A DNA stretch of 64,000 bases from Mustelus asterias. Lineage: Eukaryota. The stretch lies in contig NC_135815.1 of the NCBI RefSeq assembly GCF_964213995.1, forward strand, positions 73,594,001 through 73,658,000, read 5' to 3'. Shown piece by piece: positions 1 to 43,095 of the stretch. Under the pieces are notes generated by a model. That model did no database searches and was not told where the DNA came from. It saw only the letters and a list, made by a program, of their open reading frames with translations. The first letter of the stretch is position 1. The number at the start of each line of letters is the position of its first letter. A program made the position numbers and the translations under genes.

Positions 1-1958
1 CACGAAAATGGCTGGAATTGCGGATAGCGAAGAGCATTGTCGGGCAATACAGCAGGATATAGATAGGCTGGAAAATTGGGCGGAGAGGTGGCAGATGGAG
101 TTTAATCCGGATAAATGCGAAGTGATGCATTTTGGAAGAAATAATGTAAGGAGGAGTTATACAATAAATGGCAGAGTCATCAGGAGTATAGAAACACAGA
201 GGGACCTAGGTGTGCAAGTCCACAAATCCTTGAAGGTGGCAACACAGGTGGAGAAGGTGGTGAAGAAGGCATATGGTATGCTTGCCTTTATAGGACGGGG
301 TATAGAGTATAAAAGCTGGAGTTTGATGATGCAGCTGTATAGAACGCTGGTTAGGCCACATTTGGAGTACTGCGTCCAGTTCTGGTCGCCGCACTACCAG
401 AAGGACGTGGAGGCATTGGAGAGAGTGCAGAGAAGGTTTACCAGGATGTTGCCTGGTATGGAGGGTCTTAGCTATAAGACCATAAGACCATAAGACATAG
501 GAGCGGAAGTAAGGCCATTCGGCCCATCGAGTCCACTCCACCATTCAATCATGGTTGATTTCAACTCCATTTACCCGCTCTCTCCCCATAGCCCTTAATT
601 CCTCGAGAAATCAAGAATTTATCAATTTCTGTCTTGAAGACGCTCAACGTCTCGGCCTCCACAGCCCTCTGTGGCAATGAATTCCACAGACCCACCACTC
701 TCTGGCTGAAGAAATTTCTCCTCATCTCTGTTCTAAAGTGACTCCCTTTTATTCTAAGGCTGTGCCCCCGCGTCCTAGTCTCCCCTGTTAATGGAAACAA
801 CTTCCCTACGTCCATCCTATCTAAGCCGTTCATTATCTTGTAAGTTTCTATCAGATCTCCCCTCAACCTCCTAAACTCCAATGAATATAATCCCACGATC
901 CTCAGACGTTCATCGTATGTCAGGCCTACCATTCCTGGGATCATCCGTGTGAATCTCCGCTGGACCCGCTCCAGTGCCAGTATGTCCTTCCTGAGGTGTG
1001 GGGCCCAAAATTGCTCACAGTACTCCAAATGGGGCCTAACCAGTGCTTTATAAAGCCTCAGAAGTACATCCCTGCTTTTGTATTCCAAGCCTCTTGAGAT
1101 AAATGACAACATTACATTTGCTTTCTTAATTACGGACTCAACCTGCAAGTTTACCTTTAGAGAATCCTGGACTAGGACTCCCAAGTCCCTTTGCACTTTA
1201 GCATTATGAATTTTGTCACCGTTTAGAAAATAGTCCATGCCTCTATTCTTTTTTCCAAAGTGTACGACCTCGCACTTGCCCACGTTGAATTTCATCAGCC
1301 ACTTCTTGGACCACTCTCCTAAACTGTCTAAATCTTTCTGCAGCCTCCCCACCTCCTCAATACTACCTGCCCCTCCACCTATCTTTGTATCATCGGCAAA
1401 CTTGGCCAGAATGCTCCCAGTCCCGTCATCTAGATCGTTAATATATAAAGAGAACAGCTGTGGCCCCAACACTGAACCCTGCGGGACACCACTTGTCACC
1501 GGTTGCCATTCTGAGAAAGAACCTTTTATCCCAACTATGAGGAGAGATTGGGTAGACTGGGGTTGTTCTCCTTGGAAAGACGGAGAATGAGGGGAGATCT
1601 AATAGAGGTATACAAGATTATGAAGGGTATAGATAGGGTGAACAGTGGGAAGCTTTTTCCCAGGTCGGAGGTGACGATCACGAGGGGTCACGGGCTCAAG
1701 CTGAGAGGGGCGAAGTATAACTCAGACATCAGAGGGACGTTTTTTACACAGAGGGTGGTGGGGGCCTGGAATGCACTGCCAAGTAGGGTGGTGGAGGCAG
1801 GCACGCTGACATCGTTTAAGACTTACCTGGATAGTCACATGAGCAGCCTGGGAATGGAGGGATACAAACGATTGGTCTAGTTGGACCAAGGAGCAGCACA
1901 GGCTTGGAGGGCCGAAGGGCCTGTTTCCTGTGCTGTACTGTTCTTTGTTCTTTGTTCT
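1..1958 (+). mobile_element. CR1/HER1-type LINE, 3' portion (RT C-terminus plus 3' UTR), split by an antisense CR1 at 476-1534
   Basis: ORFs 8..493 and 1548..1880 join across the insertion (...GMEGLSY|EERLGRLGLFSLERRR...). CR1 motifs WQMEFNPDKC and LVRPHLEYCVQFWSP, 3' hairpin GGGCCGAAGGGCC and (TGTTCTT)n tail ending near 1958. Confidence 0.93.
476..1534 (-). mobile_element. 5'-truncated CR1 LINE (different subfamily) inserted antisense into another CR1
   Basis: Uninterrupted 312-aa RT frame 561..1499 (SGVPQGSVLGP, FADD). (TCTTATGG)n tail at 476-500. CTAT at both junctions (472-475, 1535-1538). Confidence 0.95.
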
Positions 1959-1959
1959 T

Positions 1960-2941
1960 CTGTTTTACTGGCGTTAAGGTCTAGGGGTCTTCCAGTCTCC
2001 CGTTGGCAAGAGGTACTTTCTGATGCGCTCCATTCAATCCGGTCCCTCCTGTGTACGGCAACCAACGCTACCCCACATGAGCGGATGTTTACCTTCTCTA
2101 GGAAGTCTTCCTCTGGGACCTCACTGCCGTCTTGGTTGACGTACTCAGGACCTGTCCTCCTGCGGCGGCATGTTAGGGCCCGCAAGTCCGACCCTTTGGT
2201 TGAACAGGTCCATCTCCTCCACGCCAACCCTCAATATGCCTATGTGGCATATCCTGACGGGCGAGAGGACACGGTCTCTATCAGAGATCTGGCGCCTGCA
2301 GGGGACCTGGAAACCCCCGTCACTCCCGCACCCCTGGTTAGGATTCCTTTGCCCATTCTCTCCCCTCCTGACACGGCGTGGGCAGCATCGGGACCTCAAC
2401 TTAATCCTCTTACTCCCGTGTACAGCTTGACTCAGGAGATTGTCGCCACCTCGAGGTCCACAGGCGTGTGAGGATCTGGAGGAGTCACTGGACACCACCT
2501 CGGAGAGACGGTCGTCACCACGGTCACCAGAACCGGCACTGGAGCCAGTGCTGCGGAGGTCGCAGAGACGGTGCGGACCTCCGATACGGCTGAACTTGTG
2601 AACATGTGGACAGTTCGTATTGTCTCCTTACCCCACCGGCCTTTGTTTTTAAAGGAGGGGTGAATGTGGTGAACCATAGATGGTTACCACTATGGGTACT
2701 TGTACATATGTTACTCTTGTTACTGTTGGGGTTAGGGTTGGGGTGTTCCACCTGTTAGCATTGTTCTGTGGTACACTCCGTTTGGCTCTGCCTTCTTACA
2801 GGAGTATAAAGGTCACTGCTACTTCCTAGAAGCCCTTAGTCTGAGATAGTATTGTTAAGCAGTATGCTCTATTCTTGTTGTGAATAAAAGCCTTTATTCC
2901 CGGGTACGTCCTAGCCTCCCGAGTGAATTAATCGCGCATCA
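1960..2941 (+). mobile_element. Gypsy/Ty3 LTR retrotransposon 3' end: integrase C-terminus, polypurine tract and 3' LTR
   Basis: WQEVLSDALHSIRSLLCTATNATPHERMF (integrase C-term). PPT AAAGGAGGGGTGAA 2651-2664. LTR TG...CA 2665-2941 with TATAAA (~2805) and AATAAA (2883-2888). Confidence 0.85.
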
Positions 2942-3233
2942 GTCAGTTAGTGTGTTTTTTTTTTGGCCTTTACTTTTGTAGTAGTATTTTTCTTAAGTTT
3001 AAAGTGAAAACCGGAAGTGGGCTGCTAAGGAGTCTGGGAAGGGTTTTTTAAGCGTGTGAAGTATAAAAGGTAGGCTGCAGTATACAGCGGGCAGCGTCGG
3101 GAGCGGGCAGTGGAGTGTGTGGGAAGCAGAGTGTGAGCTATAAGGGCTTTGGCTTAGGCAGAAACGGCGAGCATGGGTGAGTTTAATTCATTTTTGCTGT
3201 TTCTACCTGGTACTGGCAAGGTATCTAGAGGGG

Positions 3234-4160
3234 ATGGGTGTGCAGGCAGTGCTATGTTCCTCTTGCACTATGTTTGAGGTGAGGGACTCCGTCAGTGTCC
3301 CTGCTGATTACACCTGTGGGAAGTGCACCCATCTGCAGCTCCTCCAAAACCGTGTTAGGGAACTGGAGCTGGAATTGGATGAACTTAGGATCATTAGGGA
3401 CGCAGAGGTGGCCATAGACAGAAGCTTTAGGGATACAGTTACTCCGAGGAATGAAAATAGATGGGTGACGGTGAGAGGGGCTGGGAGGAAGCAGTCAGTG
3501 CAGGGATCCCCTGTGGTCGTTCCCCTTAGCAACAAGTATTCCGCTTTGGATACGGTTGAGGGGGACGACACACCAGTGGTGAGCCGCAGTGAGAGGATCT
3601 CCAGCACTGTGTCCGTCTCTGTGGCTCGGGAGGGTAAGGGGGAGAGCGGGAGGGCAATAGTTATTGGGGACTCGTTAGTTAGAGGGATAGATAGGAGGTT
3701 CTGTGGCAGCAAAAGAGACTCGAGGATGGTATGTTGCCTACCGGATGCCAGGATCCGTGATGTCTCGGAACGTGTTTTCCGGATTCTTAAGGGGGAGGGG
3801 AAACAGTCACAAGTCGTGGTACACATTGGTACCAACGACATAGGTAAGAGAAGGGACGGGGATTTAAAACAGGAATTTCGGGAGCTGGGCTGGAAGTTGA
3901 GAGCCAAGACAAAACATGTGGTCATCTCTGGTACGTTACCGGTGCCACGTGATAGCGAGTTGAGGAACAGGGAGAGAGTGCAGTTAAACATGTGGTTGCA
4001 GGGATGGTGTAGGAGGGAGGGTTTCAGATATGTGGATAATTGGAACACATTCTGGGGAAGGTGGGACCTGTACAAACAGGACAGGGTGCACCTGAACCAG
4101 AGGGGCACCAATATCCTGGGAGGGAAATTTGATACGGCTCTTCAGGGGGATTTAAACTAA
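3234..4160 (+). CDS. CR1 ORF1p: CxxC...CxxC zinc finger/leucine zipper plus SGNH esterase domain (308 aa from first ATG)
   Basis: CSSC...CGKC followed by heptad LQNRVRELELELDEL. SGNH blocks IVIGDSLVRG, VHIGTND and D-x-x-H (DRVHLN). The track start at 3177 is GTG; the first ATG is 3234. Confidence 0.92.
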   Translation: MGVQAVLCSSCTMFEVRDSVSVPADYTCGKCTHLQLLQNRVRELELELDELRIIRDAEVAIDRSFRDTVTPRNENRWVTVRGAGRKQSVQGSPVVVPLSNKYSALDTVEGDDTPVVSRSERISSTVSVSVAREGKGESGRAIVIGDSLVRGIDRRFCGSKRDSRMVCCLPDARIRDVSERVFRILKGEGKQSQVVVHIGTNDIGKRRDGDLKQEFRELGWKLRAKTKHVVISGTLPVPRDSELRNRERVQLNMWLQGWCRREGFRYVDNWNTFWGRWDLYKQDRVHLNQRGTNILGGKFDTALQGDLN

Positions 4161-7057
4161 TTTGTCAGGGGAGTAGGAAAAGGAGTTGTAGTCCAGATGT
4201 CAGTGTTGAGGGTGGTGAGGTATTGGGGAAGGTATCAAGGTCAAGGGTGGGTACCGGTAGACAGGAAGGTGGGTTGAAGTGTGGCTACTTCAATGCAAGG
4301 AGCATCCGGAACAAGGTAGATGAACTTGGGGCGTGGATTGGTACTTGGGACTACGATGTTGTGGCCATTACGGAGACGTGGGTAGAACAAGGACAGGAAT
4401 GGTTGTTGGACGTTCTGGGGTATAGATGTTTCACTAAGTGTAGGGAAGCTGGTAAAAGAGGTGGAGGAGTAGCATTGTTAATCAAGGATAGTTTAACGGC
4501 TGCGGAAAGGCACTTCGAGGGGGATCTGCACACTGAGGTAATATGGGCTGAGGTTAGAAATAGGAAAGGAGCGGTCACGTTGTTAGGAGTTTACTATAGG
4601 CCCCCAAATAGTAATAGAGATGTGGAGGAAGAAATTGCTAAGCAGATTATGGATATGTGTTGGGGTCACAGGGTAGTGGTCATGGGGGACTTTAACTTTC
4701 CAAATATTGATTGGAACCTTTGTAGGTCAAATAGTTCGGATGGGGCAGTTTTTGTGCAGTGTGTGCAGGAGGGTTTCCTGACACAATATGTGGATAGGCC
4801 GACAAGAGGTGAGGCCACATTGGATTTGGTACTGGGAAATGAACCGGGACAAGTGTTAGATTTGGTTGTGGGAGAGCACTTTGGAGATAGTGACCACAAT
4901 TCGGTGTCTTTTGTTATTGCAATGGAGAGGGATAGGGCCGTACGGCAGGGCAAGGTTTACAATTGGGGGAAAGGTAAATTTGATGTGATTAGGCAAGAAT
5001 TAGGGGGCATAAGATGGGAACAGAAACTGTCAGGGAAAGGCACTAATGAAAAGTGGAACTTTTTCAAGGAACAAATACTGGGTGTCCTTGATAGGTATGT
5101 CCCTGTCAGGCAGGGAGGAAATGGCCGAGTGAGGGAACCATGGTTCACGAAAGAGGTGGAATGTCTTGTGAAAAGGAAGAGGGAAGCTTATGTAGGGATG
5201 AGGAAACAAGGTTCAGATGGCTCGATTGAGGGTGACAAGTTAGCAAGGAATGAGCTGAAAAAGGGGCTTAGGAGAGCTAGAAGGGGACATGAGAAGTCCT
5301 TGGCGGGTCGGATCAGGGAAAACCCCAAGGCTTTTTACTCTTATGTGAGGAATAAAAGAATGACCAGGGTGAGGTTAGGGCTGGTCAAGGACAGTAGTGG
5401 GAACTTGTGTATGGAGTCAGTAGAGATAGGCGAGGTGATGAATGAATACTTTTCTTCAGTGTTCACCAAGGAGAGGGGCCATGTTTTTGAGGAAGAGAAG
5501 GTGTTACAGGCTAATAGGCTGGAGGAAATAGATGTTCGGAGGGAGGATGTCCTGGCAGTTTTGAATAAACTGAAGGTCGATAAGTCCCCTGGGCCTGATG
5601 AAATGTATCCTAGGATTCTTTGGGAGGCAAGGGATGAGATTGCAGAGCCTTTGGCTTTGATCTTTGGGTCCTCACTGTCCACGGGGATGGTGCCAGAGGA
5701 CTGGAGAGTGGCGAATGTTGTTCCTCAGTTTAAGAAAGGGAATAGAAATGACCCTGGTAATTATAGACCGGTTAGTCTTACTTCGATGGTTGGTAAATTG
5801 ATGGAAAAGGTCCTTAGGGATGGGATTTACGACCGTTTAGAAAGATGCGGATTAATCCGGGATAGTCAGCACGGATTCGTGAAGGGCAAGTCGTGCCTCA
5901 CAAATTTGATTGAATTTTTTGAGGAGGTAACTAAGTGTGTTGATGAAGGTAGGGCAGTTGATGTCATATACATGGATTTTAGTAAGGCCTTTGATAAGGT
6001 CCCCCATGGTCAGCTTATGATGAAAGTAAGGAGGTGTGGGATAGAGGGAAAGTTGGCAGATTGGATAGGTAACTGGCTATCTGATCGAAGACAGAGGGTG
6101 GTGGTGGATGGAAAATTTTCGGACTGGAGGCAGGTTGCTAGCGGAGTGCCACAGGGATCAGTGCTTGGTCCTCTGCTCTTTGTGATTTTTATTAATGACT
6201 TAGAGGAGGGGGCTGAAAGGTGGATCAGTAAATTTGCTGATGACACCAAGATTGGTGGAGTAGTGGATGTGGTGGAGGGCTGTTGTAGGCTGCAAAGAGA
6301 CATAGATAGGATGCAAAGCTGGGCTGAAAAATGGCAAATGGAATTTAACCCTGATAAATGTGAGGTGATTCATTTTGGTAGGACTAATTTAAATGTGGAT
6401 TACAGGGTCAAAGGTAGGGTTCTGAAGACTGTGGAGGAACAGAGAGATCTTGGGGTCCATATCCACAGATCTCTAAAGGTTGCCACTCAAGTGGATAGAG
6501 CTGTGAAGAAGGCCTATAGTGTGTTAGCTTTTATTAACAGGGGGTTGGAGTTTAAGAGCCGTGGAGTTATGCTGCAACTGTACAGGACCTTGGTGAGACC
6601 ACATTTGGAATATTGTGTGCAGTTCCGGTCACCTCACTATAAGAAGGATGTGGAAGCGCTGGAAAGAGTGCAGAGGAGATTTACCAGGATGCTGTCTGGT
6701 TTGGAGGGTAGGTCTTATGAGGAAAGGTTGAGGGAGCTAGGGCTGTTCTCTCTGGAGCGGAGGAGGCTGAGGGGAGACTTAATAGAGGTTTATAAAATAA
6801 TGAAGGGGATAGATAGAGTCAACGTTCAAAGACTATTTCCTCGGGTGGATGGAGCTATTACAAGGGGGCATAACTATAGGGTTCGTGGTGGGAGATATAG
6901 GGAGGATATCAGAGGTAGGTTTTTTACGCAGAGAGTGGTTGGGGTGTGGAATGGACTGCCTGCAGTAATAGTGGAGTCAGACACTTTAGGAACATTTAAG
7001 CGGTTATTGGATAGGCACATGGAGCATACCAGGATGATCGGGAGTGGGATAGCTTGA
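4151..7057 (+). CDS. CR1 ORF2p: APE endonuclease plus reverse transcriptase (frame open from 4133; no AUG until 4649)
   Basis: APE motifs YFNARS, ITET, YRPP, MGDFN, LDLV, SDH. RT motifs YRPVSL, DFSKAFDKV, GVPQGSVLGP, FADD. No internal stops. The track start at 4223 is TTG. Confidence 0.93.
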   Translation, partial: FKLICQGSRKRSCSPDVSVEGGEVLGKVSRSRVGTGRQEGGLKCGYFNARSIRNKVDELGAWIGTWDYDVVAITETWVEQGQEWLLDVLGYRCFTKCREAGKRGGGVALLIKDSLTAAERHFEGDLHTEVIWAEVRNRKGAVTLLGVYYRPPNSNRDVEEEIAKQIMDMCWGHRVVVMGDFNFPNIDWNLCRSNSSDGAVFVQCVQEGFLTQYVDRPTRGEATLDLVLGNEPGQVLDLVVGEHFGDSDHNSVSFVIAMERDRAVRQGKVYNWGKGKFDVIRQELGGIRWEQKLSGKGTNEKWNFFKEQILGVLDRYVPVRQGGNGRVREPWFTKEVECLVKRKREAYVGMRKQGSDGSIEGDKLARNELKKGLRRARRGHEKSLAGRIRENPKAFYSYVRNKRMTRVRLGLVKDSSGNLCMESVEIGEVMNEYFSSVFTKERGHVFEEEKVLQANRLEEIDVRREDVLAVLNKLKVDKSPGPDEMYPRILWEARDEIAEPLALIFGSSLSTGMVPEDWRVANVVPQFKKGNRNDPGNYRPVSLTSMVGKLMEKVLRDGIYDRLERCGLIRDSQHGFVKGKSCLTNLIEFFEEVTKCVDEGRAVDVIYMDFSKAFDKVPHGQLMMKVRRCGIEGKLADWIGNWLSDRRQRVVVDGKFSDWRQVASGVPQGSVLGPLLFVIFINDLEEGAERWISKFADDTKIGGVVDVVEGCCRLQRDIDRMQSWAEKWQMEFNPDKCEVIHFGRTNLNVDYRVKGRVLKTVEEQRDLGVHIHRSLKVATQVDRAVKKAYSVLAFINRGLEFKSRGVMLQLYRTLVRPHLEYCVQFRSPHYKKDVEALERVQRRFTRMLSGLEGRSYEERLRELGLFSLERRRLRGDLIEVYKIMKGIDRVNVQRLFPRVDGAITRGHNYRVRGGRYREDIRGRFFTQRVVGVWNGLPAVIVESDTLGTFKRLLDRHMEHTRMIGSGIA

Positions 7058-9161
7058 TCTTGGTTTCAGATAAAGCTCGGCACAACATCGTGGGCCAAAG
7101 GGCCTGTTCTGTGCTGTACTGTTCTATGTTCTAAAATAGATTTTACAAGTTGGCTCAGATGTCCACTCATGTTATTAATCTCAATCAAAAAGTCCTTCAA
7201 ACTCTGTCTTCTTCACAAAGAATTTCAGCTCCTCTCCTGCTAGGGTTTAGCCTGATCCTTAACCAATTACAACACACAACTAATTTGGGTTCCATGGACA
7301 TGCTCTTCACCAAAAATGGCAGGCATCTGCAGAACCTCCTCAACTCTGCTTACAATAGTCTTGATGGTCTCGATTCACCATTTTTATCAGCAACAACTAT
7401 GGCAGGGATTCTCCTAAAACAAAACTAAGTGCCCAATGGGAGAGAAAATGGGAGAATTTCCCACCCATTTTTTGGGTATACTTACCTGAATGAATCTCCG
7501 ACGCTCTGTGCAATGCAAAGTTCCATAGAAAGATTCACACTGAGAAGTGGGAGAGGGGACCTTATCCTGCTCGGGAGGCCGACAGCATGGTGCTGAGTGG
7601 GCCACTGCGAAAGCACCAATCTGTGAGTGAGGAGATCAGAGCATGCGCACTGGCCCCCCATCGCTGACCTCCTGATCGTTGGCCACCCTGATGTTTCTGA
7701 AAACTACCTCCCCCCCCCAATCACTCTCCTCTTGACACCACCAACCCCTCGATCGCTTGCCTTCTCGAAAACCCGCCCCCCAGTTGCTGGCTTACCGGAA
7801 CCCACCTCCCCAGCCAGCCACAACCTCTGCCCCTCAGCCCCAATCTACCCCCATGATGAGCCCCAACCCTCCTGATGACCAGCTCCAATTGCCCCCTCAC
7901 TCCCTCCCCCACCGATCCCACTTGCAGAGTGGCAGCAAGTACCCCCCACAATCAATCAGCCCTGCCCCCTTGGCACTGCCCGGTGCTGGGTGGGCAGTGC
8001 CAAGGTGCCTGGTGGCAGTGCCAGTGTGCCCCTTGGGCAGTGCCAGGGTGTGAGGCTGGCACAGCCCAAGGGGCAACCTCCTTGACTCCAACCTCTTGGG
8101 GGGGTGCCTCAATGGTTTCTGTCCCCACCAGCAGGGTGAGGACACCTGTTGCCTGTTAGTGGGGAGCAATTGTAAATCCTGTTGGTGGGAACCTCTCCCA
8201 GCTGGGTGGGAGACACTAGCGAGCCCAGTGACTACCGTCCCGAGCTCACTAATCATATTGAAAAAGCGATTTCAATATGATAATCAGCTCTGCACTGATT
8301 TCCGGCACGGAGCTTATTTGTGATGCTTGTGTACCTTTAAGAAAAGTTTTTTAAAAAATCATGTTTTTTCATTGTTGCCGGGCTGTCTAGTTAGAAGTCC
8401 TTTTGTTGCTGCTTCAATGGCTTAAATTAGGTTTTGTTTATTTTTACTCTGGACCTCAGGTACTGTCTGGGATTTTTTATGATCTTGCATTGTGAGAGGG
8501 AAGATTGACTGACAAGTCAAAGTCAAGTGGTTCCTCCCCAGAAAAATCTAAGGATTCATTTTCAGTTTTAGTTTAGAAGGGGGTGGACAGCAGACAGAAA
8601 AGCATTGTTTGTTTCTCCCTCCCTGGCATTGGAAATTCTGCTGGATAGCTGGAAGCAAGGCTTTTTTCCTTCCTGGAGTGCAAAAATCTGCTGTTGGTAG
8701 TTGGCTTGCCTCAGGTCTGTCTCTCCCTGGTGTTTTGGGGAGTTGTTCTGTAAATGCATCAAGAGAACTGCAACATTCGATCAAAGGTCTAAGTTTCAGC
8801 ATCACTTGAGCATTTGTATTTTCTGTGCTAAACTTATGGCCAAGGTTTTGTGTAAGGAAGTTTGTTTGATTGGAACATTTCTTATATTCATTAATGGATA
8901 TAAAATATCATGGCTGTTTTCTTTTGTTCATCGATGTCAGTGGTAGGGAAATTATTGGAGAGGATTCTTTAAGACAGGGTTTACTCCCAATTGGAAATAA
9001 GTGGACGTATTAGTGAGAGACAACATGGTTTTGTGAAGGGGAGGTTGTGCCTCACTAACTTGATCGAGTTTTTCAAGGAAGTGACGAAGATGATTGCTGA
9101 GGGTAGGGCAGTGGATGTTGCCTACATGGACTTCAATAAGGCCTTTAACAAGAATCCTCAT

Positions 9162-22797: not shown

Positions 22798-25215
22798 TGA
22801 TGTGGAGTTGCCGGCATTGGACTGGGGTAGGCACAGTAAGTAGTCTCACAACACCAGGTTAAAGTCCAACAGGTTTATTTGGTAGCACAAGCTTTCATCA
22901 GGTGAGTGAAGAGTTTGGTTCACAAACAGGGCATATATAGACGCAAACTCAATTACAAGATAATGGTTGGAATGTGAGTCTCAACAGGTAATCAACTCTT
23001 TACAGGTGCAGACAATGTGAGTGGAGAGAGGGTTAAGCACAGGTTAAAGAGATGTGTATTGTCTCCAGCCAGGACAGTTAGTGAGATTTTGCAAGCCCAG
23101 GCAAGTCGTGGGGTTACAGATAGTGTGACATGAACCCAAGATCCCGGTTGAGGGTGTCCTCATGTGTGCGGAACTTGGCTATCAGTTTCTGCTCAGCGAT
23201 TCTGCGTTGTCGTGTGTCGTAAAGGCCGCCTTGGAGAACGCTTATCTGAAAATCAGAGGCTGAATGCCTTTGACTGCTGAAGTGTTCCCCGAAAGAAAGG
23301 GAACACTCGTGCCTGGTGATTATCGAGCGGTGTCCATTCATCCGTTGTCGTAGCGTCTGCATGGTCTCCCCAATGTACCATGCCTCTGGACATCCTTTCC
23401 TGCAGCGTAACAGGTAGACAATGTTGGCCAAGTCAAAAGAGTATGTACCATGTACCTGGTGGATGATGTTCTCACGTGAGATGATGGCATCTATGTTGAT
23501 GATCTGGCATGTCTTGCAAAGGTTGCTGTGGCAGGGTTGTGTGGTGTTGTGGTCACTGTTCTCCTGAAGGCTGGGTAGTTTGCTGCGTACAATAGTCTGT
23601 TTGAGGTTGCGCGGTTGTTTGAAGGCACGTAGTGGAGGTGTGGGGAAGGCCTTGGCGAGATGTTCGTCGTCTTTGATGACATGCTGAAGGCCCAGAGAAG
23701 ATGTCGTAGCTTCTCCACTCGGGGGAAGTACTGGATGACGAAGGGTACTCTGTCCGCCGTGTCCCGTGTTTGTCTTCTAAGGAGGTCTGTGTGGTTTTTC
23801 ACTGGCGTGTCGAAAGTGTCGATCGATGAGTTGAGCGCCATATCCTGTTCTTATGAGGGTGTCTTTCAGCGTCTGCAGGTGTCTGTTGCGATCCTCCTCA
23901 TCTGAGCAGATCCTGTGTATACGGAGGGCTTGTCTGTAGGGGATGGCTTCTTTAACATGTTTAGGGTGGAAGCTGGAGAAGTGGAGCATCGTGAGGTTAT
24001 CCATGGGCTTGTGGTACAGTGAGTGATGAAGTGACCATCCTTGATGGAGATGCGTGTGTCCAAGAATGCAACCGATTCTGAAGAGTAGTCCAAGGTGAGT
24101 CTGATGGTGGGATGGAACTTGTTGATGTCATCATGTAGTTGTTTCAGTGATTGTTCACCATGAGTCCAAAGGAAGAAAATGTCATCGATGTATCTAGTGT
24201 ATAGCATCGGTTGAAGGTCCTGTGTGGTGAAGAAGTCTTGTTCGAACCTGTGCATGAAGATGTTGGCATATTGAGGTGTGAATTTGGTCCCCATGGCTGT
24301 TCCATGTGTCTGGATGAAGAACTGGTTGTTGAAGTTGAAGACATTGTGGTCCAGGATGAAGTGAATGAGTTGTAGAATTGCATCTGGAGATTGGCAGTTG
24401 TCGGCGTTGAGTACTGAGGCAGTTGCAGCAATGCCGTCGTTGTGGGGGATGCTGGTGTAGGGTGCCAAGACATCCATTGTGATGAGGAATGTTCCTGGTT
24501 CAGCTGCTCCATGGGTGCTGAGTTTCTGTAAGAAGTCTGTAGTGTCACAACAGAAGCTGGGGGTCCTTTGTACAATGGGTTTCAGGATGCCCTCAATGTA
24601 GCCAGAGAGATTCTCAGACAGGGTCCCATTGCCCGATACGATGGGACGGCCGGGTGTGTTTGCCTTGTGTATCTTTGGGAAACAGTAGAGATCTCCAACG
24701 CGAGGAATACGTGGGATGAGAGCACAGAGGGTGCTCTGAAGGTCCAGTTCAAAGGTCTTGATCAGTCTGTTGAGTTGACGGGTGTGTTCTTTCGTTGGAT
24801 CTGCAGGTAACTGTCTGTAATGTTCCTCGTTGTTCAGTTGTCGGTACACTTCTTTGCAGTAATCCGTTCTGTTCAGTATGACGGTGGCTCCTCCTCTGTC
24901 TGCTGGTTTGATGACAATGTTGCGGTTGGTCTTGCGAGCATGGATGACGTTGCGTTGTGCTTGGGTGACATTCGGGGCTGTCTTGTGAGTGCGGCTGATG
25001 AATCTGGCATTGACGCACCTCCTGACAGCTTGAGCATACATGTCGAGTCGAGGGCAGCGGCCTTCCGGAGGAATCCAATTTGACTCTTTCCTCTTTGGTC
25101 GCTGCACCGTAGATCTCTCTGTCATCAGTTCTGGTTCATTGGCTGTCTCATTGGGTTCGCTCTTGGCCTCTTGGGGTTTGTGGAAAAACTCCCAGAACCT
25201 CATTCACCTGATGCG
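22798..25215 (-). mobile_element. Penelope-like retroelement, 5'-truncated: RT, GIY-YIG endonuclease and pLTR; frameshifted
   Basis: PLE RT motifs IKPADRGG, PKIHK, GRPIVS, GTAMG, YTRYIDDIF (23866..25203). GIY-YIG NIVYLLRC...WYIGET...RQRMNGHR (23114..23431). The hammerhead in the pLTR has lost stem II. Confidence 0.93.
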
Positions 25216-42636: not shown

Positions 42637-43095
42637 CATTATTTGGAAGAACAGGGAATTCTTCAAAATGCTTTGGCCAATATTTGCTCTTTAAACAACA
42701 TTACTAAATTATCAGATAGTGGGACTTTGCTGTGCACTAATTGATTGTATGCATCTTACATTATAACAGTGACTCCATTTGAGTTTTGAGGTCATGAAAG
42801 GCTCTATATTCGTGGGTTCGTGGTGGGAGATACAGGAAGGATATCAGAGGTAGGTTCTTTACGCAGAGAGTGGTTGGGGTGTGGATGGACTGCCTGCGGT
42901 GATAGTGGAGTCAGACACTTTAGGAACATTTAAGCGGTTATTGGATAGGCACATGGAGCACACCAGGATGATAGGGAGTGGGATAGCTTGATCTTGGTTT
43001 CAGATAAAGCTCGGCACAACATCGTGGGCCGAAGGGCCTGTTCTGTGCTGTACTGTTCTATGTTCTATATAAATGTAGCTTATTTACTTAATTTC
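42637..43095 (+). mobile_element. DeuSINE 3' part with a 255-bp CR1 3' end inserted at 42811-43066
   Basis: DeuSINE-type GGGAATTCTTC...GTGGGACTTTGCTGTGCAC...GAGGTCATGAAAGGCTCTATAT|AAATG. The CR1 piece is nearly identical to 6879-7133. CTATAT is duplicated. Confidence 0.8.

Follow-up and report, generated by a model that had tools for sequence, protein, structure and literature searches.

The window analysed here is a 64,000-nt stretch of Mustelus asterias DNA (GCF_964213995.1, NC_135815.1 positions 73,594,001-73,658,000, forward strand) and contains a near full-length shark-type CR1 LINE on the plus strand. The 5' UTR (2942..3233, 5' boundary approximate) follows an LTR-like segment whose last base is 2941 and runs up to the first ORF1 ATG at 3234. 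ORF1 (3234..4160) encodes a protein of 308 aa with a Cys-rich N-terminus, a coiled-coil-like stretch and an SGNH esterase. The zinc finger and coiled coil are by-eye readings of the sequence, and the esterase is recognised by Pfam (Lipase_GDSL_2, E 3.3e-12) and by its match to the ZfL2-1 ORF1 esterase (PDB 4C1B, E 7e-27). The nearest named ORF1 homologs come from sharks, rays and skates. Downstream, in the ORF2 frame, a poorly conserved linker (4160..4273) without ATG but with in-frame TTG (4223) and GTG (4247) is followed by the APE endonuclease domain (4274..4930; Pfam Exo_endo_phos, open-frame residues 52-255, E 2.9e-21) and the reverse transcriptase domain (5738..6457; Pfam RVT_1, residues 536-775, E 6.6e-32). 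The 3' UTR (7058..7134), read by eye, ends in short tandem repeats with no poly(A). The element thus has the CR1 traits of APE and RT in ORF2, an esterase-type ORF1 and a tandem-repeat 3' end lacking poly(A), and the end of its ORF1 is similar to that of consensus entries given as CR1 in the supplement of PMC13343379; its placement in a clade comes from an esterase tree rather than an RT tree. No target-site duplication of at least 6 nt was found around the element in the window sequence. A second copy of the CR1 3' end, 96% identical, is present at 42814-43067, and comparison of ORF junctions within the window is precluded because a single copy carries the junction.

ORF2 occupies the -1 frame relative to ORF1 and is open from 4133 to 7057, the preceding stop being TGA at 4130-4132, which gives an overlap of 28 nt (4133..4160). 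Inside this overlap the heptamer T_TTA_AAC (4151..4157) stands in ORF1 phase and abuts the ORF1 stop TAA (4158-4160), which itself shares its last base with an ORF2-frame AUU, a near-cognate codon (TAATT, 4158..4162). The first in-frame ATG of ORF2, at 4649, falls in the middle of the APE domain, after the motifs YFNARS (4286), ITET (4367) and YRPP (4595). Recomputation reproduced the preliminary description of this junction in its stop and heptamer positions, its -1 frame and overlap, its late ATG and its predicted fusion of about 1274 aa (308+966). The layout is that of a frameshift site, with an X_XXY_YYZ heptamer in phase, within the overlap, and the downstream ORF in -1; it is not the L1-type layout, in which a spacer separates the ORFs and ORF2 starts with AUG, nor does the shark copy carry the SART1-type AUG over the ORF1 stop. 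Canonical heptamers occur in ORF1 phase at 3 of 306 positions, and only TTTAAAC at 4151 lies beyond the last -1-frame stop (4130). Within the single copy the heptamer is modest evidence, and the case for frameshifting gains its weight from conservation in relatives.

At the DNA level, TTTAAAC is found at 19 junctions in published consensus sequences of the CR1 group (sharks, rays, chimaera, coelacanth, bowfin, frog, lizard and crocodilians), a set with no full denominator because it was gathered by searching for the heptamer. Eight synonymous variants of the heptamer returned 46 matches, none at an ORF1 end (0/46), and junctions located by an upstream anchor carried the heptamer in 4/4 cases. 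The base before the Leu and Asn codons is fixed as T across six differing preceding codons, and the ORF1 stop varies (TAA, TAG, TGA) beside an invariant heptamer; given the codon usage of the element, chance coincidence of the three positions is about 2%. By these sequence comparisons the heptamer is conserved beyond what coding needs. The preliminary description had proposed such a comparison across vertebrates and had named free variation of the Leu and Asn codons as grounds for abandoning frameshifting; no such variation was seen. Two of three matches listed from the supplement of PMC4316615 (Suh 2015) both lie in the 3' part of ORF2. A tblastn search of the esterase against plasmids gave no match. 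A genome-contig scan with a shark ORF1 alignment produced 22 pattern matches, none of them confirmed.

The ends of ORF1 proteins carry a corresponding pattern. Close homologs end in LN in 25/33 cases and in IN, one base from LN, in one; the remaining seven stop short of the native end. Among a broader set of 181 homologs, the catalytic DxxH block lies 18-45 residues before the C-terminus in 128 (113 DxxHL and 15 DxxHP). A heptamer-compatible terminal dipeptide, LN or, in other branches, GN or KN, is present in 83/113 DxxHL-type esterases against a background of 5.5%, and in 2/15 of the DxxHP type; 15/113 DxxHL-type ends, including a 7-member clade, fit no heptamer. Where homologs end in Asn, it is preceded by L, G or K, the residues with XXA codons, in 84/90. 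The residue before the terminal dipeptide covaries as X_XXA_AAC requires: E, Q, K, M or W, which have no T-ending codon, precedes LN in 1/72 (15% nearby), and Q precedes GN in 8/10. P values for these comparisons are overstated, since the sequences are related (31 clusters at 60% identity, 10 at 50%). In a tree of the ORF1 esterases, made by a quick method, the clade holding the shark copy ends in LN in 54/59, and GN, KN and LN ends alternate among sister branches; look-alike clusters of the GN/KN branches are commonest in Chordata. These protein ends suggest G_GGA_AAC and A_AAA_AAC at the corresponding junctions, and searchable supplement text contained no DNA junctions with either (0/3, 0/2, 0/7 and, for GGGAAACTA, none among the two of four matches listed). 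The L2-like sister clade (DGxHP) has LN, GN or KN in 0/14 and, lacking these ends, probably expresses ORF2 in another way. Two shifted copies, P0031 and P0057, carry FKL in the ORF2 frame. Of 7998 scored in a search for longer, fused ORF1 proteins, one matched; it was no ORF1-APE fusion, and the result is weak evidence.

A terminal LN might instead be demanded by the protein, as the end of the last esterase helix, with ORF2 starting at an AUG or GUG in the linker that has perhaps been lost here (GTG 4247). Bacterial SGNH esterases can indeed have a terminal LN, spaced from DxxH as in CR1 (the search pattern required LN), but their genes use varied codons, and a codon-blind scan found the heptamer in 0/14 bacterial esterases and in 1/1 CR1-like contig. 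In CR1, moreover, synonymous positions are fixed while LN remains terminal on tails spanning 22 to 39 residues. GTG 4247 is in frame in good Kozak context (A at -3, G at +4), and P0182, the nearest relative by ORF2 (93%), has a Met called at this position; gene callers render GTG starts as Met. P0183, P0184 and P0031, however, have no Met there. In several relatives Met residues precede the NARS motif, but their distances from it are scattered, and no AUG before the endonuclease motif was seen to recur at one position; the preliminary description had named an in-frame family AUG upstream of YFNARS, lost from this copy, as grounds against frameshifting. Protein constraint with a linker start is quite improbable.

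Termination-reinitiation at the ORF1 stop, which would yield a separate ORF2p, is somewhat less improbable but still unlikely. Restart could use a SART1-like UAAUG, a near-cognate AUU or, as in L1, no start codon, and excerpts of the literature describe this mechanism for SART1 and favour it for L1 (PMC10275272, PMC3894237, PMC5009743). TAATG, placing an ORF2-frame AUG over the stop, is present in 3/19 consensus junctions (ScyCan_CR1-1a, SquAca_CR1-17a and SquAca_CR1-6c), and the shark copy has TAATT. UGGGA is present 41 nt and 96 nt before the ORF1 stop, a short motif likely to arise by chance in G-rich DNA. The other 16/19 junctions nevertheless have different codons over the stop (GGT, GTT, AGC, GCT, GTG, GTA, GAA, GGG, GAT, AGG, ATT and others), and restart leaves unexplained the fixed heptamer, the preceding T and the L/G/K covariation. 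Reinitiation could operate alongside frameshifting in some shark families.

The region after the heptamer lacks a classical stimulator. Folding of 4158-4260 gave no stable structure (z = -0.30) and Rfam no match, in keeping with the earlier impression of a G-rich tract and no obvious pseudoknot. A stem scan after the heptamer of the shark copy found weak stems only, quadruplex-aware folding found no stimulator there, and a long-range duplex scan found no partner better than shuffled sequences; neither this aged copy nor L014 has a stem-loop or pseudoknot 5-9 nt downstream of the heptamer. In place of such a structure is a G-tract of conserved position: a run of at least 4 G starting 4-14 nt past the heptamer occurs in 15/19 consensus junctions (by eye) and in L014. 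The candidate tract of the shark copy (4168..4185), which starts 11 nt past the heptamer, is degenerate, with a G4Hunter score of 1.12 that 6% of the element's windows reach. An adjacent conserved G-tract with no structure found might suit a heptamer kept for reasons other than slippage, as an RNA-binding, splicing or transcriptional slippage signal or a DNA-level element. This is highly improbable: the motif is kept in codon phase at the only site from which the -1 frame is open, and its variants obey the tRNA re-pairing rule X_XXA_AAC.

Sequence comparison therefore argues that conserved -1 ribosomal frameshifting very probably produces an ORF1-ORF2 fusion in vertebrate CR1 LINEs. The preliminary description had proposed frameshifting as a Gag-Pol-like strategy in a non-LTR element; fixed codons, covariation and the lack of a shared AUG favour this reading, and a non-LTR precedent has been stated for TRE5-A and TRE3-A. 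Most ribosomes would end ORF1 at the stop after Leu-Asn. Some, with tRNA-Leu and tRNA-Asn on U_UUA_AAC, would shift one base backwards, pair anew on UUU_AAA and continue into a fusion, here of 1274 aa, comprising esterase, linker, APE and RT. The neighbouring stop codon and G-tract may act as stimulators of the shift. Slippage would keep the enzyme at a low and constant proportion to ORF1 protein, and by analogy with Gag-Pol and Gag the fusion might allow the enzyme to co-assemble with ORF1 multimers. The retention of a virus-style slip signal exactly at the CR1 overlap suggests that the enzyme is translated as part of a single fused protein.

The means by which LINEs translate ORF2 have long been in question, and excerpts of reviews offer as answers reinitiation, stop-start coupling, internal entry and 2A (PMC5009743, PMC3894237, PMC10275272). 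No earlier report of frameshifting in CR1 was found in the literature searched, whose scope lay outside the primary papers of 1997-2005. A more ambitious reading, tentative and at somewhat less than even chances, is that CR1 of jawed vertebrates carries an unreported -1 signal, with three heptamers swapped in other chordate branches, that the esterase-APE-RT fusion is the normal ORF2p, and that the adjacent stop and conserved G-tract, as a quadruplex or bound by protein, form a new, pseudoknot-free kind of stimulator. CR1-group elements are, according to PMC13343379, the dominant retrotransposons of most vertebrates; CR1 predominates among the mobile elements of sharks, reptiles and many other vertebrates. 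If frameshifting holds, the real CR1 enzyme is a fusion protein, the ORF2 starts given in CR1 annotations are artefacts, and ORF1 is tied to the enzyme in the manner of Gag and Pol, a link that would fit the Gag-like role at membranes that an excerpt of PMC3905857 proposes for the esterase. The heptamer would then mark intact CR1 copies, CR1 junctions would make up a large natural collection of frameshift signals, and CR1 expression would be retrovirus-like, through one fused protein, unlike the translation restart of human LINE-1.

Frameshifting by -1 at U_UUA_AAC, G_GGA_AAC and A_AAA_AAC is known from coronavirus 1a/1b, gag-pol of retroviruses and LTR elements, and PEG10. These three heptamers are among those at which mammalian ribosomes shift most readily, as stated in an excerpt of PMC5009743. 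CR1 resembles viral and LTR gag-pol in its heptamers, its upstream structural protein and its -1-frame enzyme without an AUG of its own; it differs in that the element is non-LTR and combines an esterase ORF1 with APE-RT, no protease domain was seen and no pseudoknot found, and the stop lies directly 3' of the heptamer, followed by a G-tract. Among non-LTR elements, Dictyostelium TRE5-A and TRE3-A need a -1 frameshift for ORF2, according to a figure legend in PMC5911963, a requirement they would share with CR1, from which they differ in clade and host. SART1, like CR1, has a -1-frame ORF2 right at the ORF1 stop, but its coupling requires AUG and downstream structure (excerpts of PMC10275272 and PMC3894237), whereas the shark copy and most of the CR1 junctions seen have no AUG and keep the heptamer. 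The esterase of zebrafish ZfL2-1, an L2 element, is homologous to CR1 ORF1, and the DGxHP clade to which it is similar differs from CR1 in its terminal residues. Human L1 has a spacer between its ORFs and initiates ORF2 independently of AUG (excerpt of PMC5009743); like CR1 it makes low levels of ORF2 from a bicistronic RNA, but in CR1 the two ORFs overlap.

The forward strand of the window carries a near full-length CR1-type LINE (about 2942-7134). ORF1 (3234-4160, 308 aa) includes an SGNH esterase (Pfam E 3.3e-12; PDB 4C1B E 7e-27), and its named close homologs are from sharks, rays and skates. The ORF2 frame is -1 relative to ORF1, is open at 4133-7057 and encodes the APE and RT domains recognized by Pfam. 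The last stop of this frame, TGA at 4130-4132, precedes an in-phase TTTAAAC heptamer (4151-4157) that abuts the ORF1 stop, TAA at 4158-4160; these coordinates, the phase and the frame are all as given in the preliminary description. Its statement that ORF2 has no AUG before the endonuclease motifs also holds, the first in-frame ATG (4649) lying 3' of YFNARS, ITET and YRPP, and the 1274 aa predicted for an ORF1-ORF2 fusion agrees with the length recomputed from the frames. An ORF2 AUG may have been lost in this copy's own family, but such a loss is not general. In several of 51 ORF2 homologs a Met does precede the NARS motif, its distance differing from protein to protein, and where this copy has GTG 4247 the homologous protein P0182 is annotated with Met; three other relatives, however, lack Met there, and GTG starts are recorded as Met by gene callers. 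Because this copy differs from P0182, a 93% relative, at residues on which the relatives agree, it is probably an aged insertion. Esterase block II has a Gly at residue 171 of ORF1 (3744-3746) that is nearly invariant in relatives; this copy and its two nearest relatives, P0001 and P0002, have Asp instead, possibly marking a subfamily with an altered oxyanion hole.

Several other elements lie in the window. Directly 5' of the CR1 element (1881-2941, forward strand) is a reading frame that looks integrase-like by eye and has no Pfam match; a purine tract (about 2651-2664) is followed by a TG...CA segment (2665-2941) resembling the 3' LTR of an LTR element, with no second copy within the window. 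A 5'-truncated CR1 copy of the same family (42814-43067, forward strand) is 96% identical to the element's 3' end, and about 20 more CR1-like RT fragments are present. Two long frames on the reverse strand (23114-25203), one with a weak RT match, are unmatched by the CR1 ORF2 query and belong to a different retroelement.

Canonical heptamers occupy 3 of 306 in-phase ORF1 positions, and TTTAAAC at 4151-4157 is the sole one past the final -1-frame stop. Taken alone, the heptamer of this copy could be of chance origin, and the 64-kb window holds no second ORF1/ORF2 junction. CR1 very probably produces an ORF1-ORF2 fusion by tandem -1 slippage, in which, on a minority of ribosomes, tRNA-Leu and tRNA-Asn would leave UUA_AAC together and re-pair with UUU_AAA, yielding an esterase-linker-APE-RT protein alongside abundant ORF1p. 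The stop codon and the G-tract beyond it may play some part.

A heptamer directly before the stop dictates the final residues of ORF1, so the C-termini of homologs can be used as a test. Among 33 close ORF1 homologs, 25 end in LN and one in IN, the native end not being reached in seven. The best 150 of 1933 matches from a library-wide ORF1 search were pooled with these to give 181 distinct proteins. In 128 of them the catalytic DxxH block lies 18-45 residues before the C-terminus; the other 53 were left out of the end count as partial or shifted. Where this block is DxxHL, a heptamer-compatible dipeptide is terminal in 83/113 (70 LN, 10 GN, 2 KN and 1 NL) versus 5.5% at nearby positions, among the best 150 and the close homologs, while 15/113 fit no heptamer; for DxxHP the count is 2/15. 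Asn is preceded by L, G or K, residues with XXA codons, in 84 of 90 Asn-terminal proteins, and the remaining six (EN, SN, IN, FN) are one base off. The heptamer further demands that the codon before LN end in T and that before GN in G. A residue without a T-ending codon precedes LN in 1/72 versus 15% nearby, and Gln precedes GN in 8/10 and never LN in the same set. LN stays terminal across tails of 22 to 39 residues. The LN/GN/KN set is non-independent (31 clusters at 60% identity, 10 at 50%), and significance from raw counts is overstated by kinship. Free variation of the Leu and Asn codons, which the preliminary description held would speak against frameshifting, is not found; the LN end and the preceding base are constrained in relatives.

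In an esterase tree of 126 rows (quick method, terminal residues excluded, 3 short domains dropped), the window's ORF1 falls in a clade of 59 rows (support 97), 54 of them ending in LN. Heptamer-type ends are absent from a 14-row, mostly DGxHP clade resembling ZfL2-1 (0/14) and from a separate 7-row clade. On another branch, with mostly chordate look-alike clusters, sister rows differ in whether they end in GN, KN or LN, the ends alternating (SGN next to AKN and SKN, support 97; QGN next to FLN, support 89). Proteins of the GN branch (P0073, P0104, P0134, P0098, P0090, P0124) include ends in FFH/FFR, or GF, LN or GN 1-4 residues before the stop, which may be further slippery-site variants. A 103-member Atlas cluster (486 aa) combines GDSL esterase and Exo_endo_phos domains; it might represent an in-frame fusion of esterase and endonuclease, or else an unrelated protein of bacterial origin.

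LN might be kept as a protein-level requirement, but such a need cannot fix synonymous bases. In the first 400 letters of each CR1-group consensus sequence in Supplementary Table 2 of PMC13343379, with matches judged by eye, TTTAAACTA has 23 matches, 17 at the ORF1 end and 6 elsewhere, and TTTAAACTG has 7, 2 of them at the ORF1 end. The 19 heptamer-bearing junctions in these partial rows come, by row name, from catshark, dogfish, sawfish, stingray, chimaera, coelacanth, bowfin, teleost, bullfrog, bearded dragon, alligator and crocodile; the pre-Leu codon is GCT, GGT, GAT, TAT, TGT or CTT, and the stop varies among TAA, TAG and TGA, one row being degraded there. Eight synonymous heptamer variants followed by TA gave 46 matches in the same rows, none at the ORF1 end, and TTTAAAC is thus conserved past the coding need for LN, as the preliminary description had proposed to ask. 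A heptamer-blind upstream anchor gave 8 matches in these rows, 4 at the esterase block, all four with the heptamer. The expected coincidence of TTA, AAC and a T-ending Gly codon is about 2% under this element's codon usage. A codon-blind scan of bacterial genome contigs found 15 loci; 14 are ordinary-looking bacterial esterase ends without the heptamer (0/14), and L014, a 257-nt contig, reads T_TTA_AAC_TAA followed by an open -1 frame, with 61% identity over 38 residues to the CR1-type protein P0179. CR1-like sequences in bacterial records, namely L014:1-257 (Jeotgalibacillus contig) and the Pseudomonas and Carnobacterium protein records P0008 and P0184, are most likely host contamination. In P0031 and P0057, two proteins that are naturally shifted, the ORF2 frame reads FKL. 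No DNA instance of G_GGA_AAC or A_AAA_AAC was found in the sequences searched. In the main retrotransposon of most vertebrates, the heptamer is a genuine recoding signal with deep conservation.

The RNA 3' of the heptamer folds no better than shuffles (z -0.30), and the junction yielded neither a pseudoknot or quadruplex fold nor a long-range partner or a match to an Rfam frameshift family, in keeping with the earlier remark that only a G-rich tract was evident. A run of at least 4 G begins 4-14 nt 3' of the heptamer, where a 3' stimulator would begin, in 15 of the 19 junctions from the partial consensus rows, in L014 and in this copy. As a stimulator this run is a lead only, because the sense strand is G-rich.

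The 1997 turtle CR1 paper reportedly noted a short ORF overlap, and frameshifting may well have been proposed earlier for CR1, either in that paper or in a Repbase entry. No paper on frameshifting in CR1, or combining CR1, slippery and retrotransposon, was found in the searchable literature surveyed, taken without Kojima 2005, Kapitonov and Jurka 2003, the 1997 chicken and turtle CR1 papers and bioRxiv supplements. CR1 is not mentioned in the first 300,000 of 449,034 characters of PMC5009743, 'frameshift' and 'slippery' are absent from the main text of PMC13343379, and 'frameshift' is absent from the portion of PMC3894237 covered; the survey also took in parts of PMC10275272, PMC1965478, PMC4700185, PMC11835228, PMC3905857, PMC4255032 and the supplement of PMC4316615.

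Reinitiation at the ORF1 stop could operate in some CR1 families in the manner of SART1, whose TAATG stop-start layout recurs in 3/19 of the junctions in the partial consensus rows, with AUU at the corresponding position in this copy; the overlapping AUG is nevertheless missing from 16/19, and reinitiation leaves the heptamer unexplained. Tandem -1 slippage belongs to a mechanism class already known; that CR1 uses it has apparently not been described in the literature searched. For Paramecium LINEs a +1 frameshift or reinitiation has been suggested (PMC5405496, in the part covered), and TRE5-A and TRE3-A are stated to require a -1 frameshift (PMC5911963, likewise in part).
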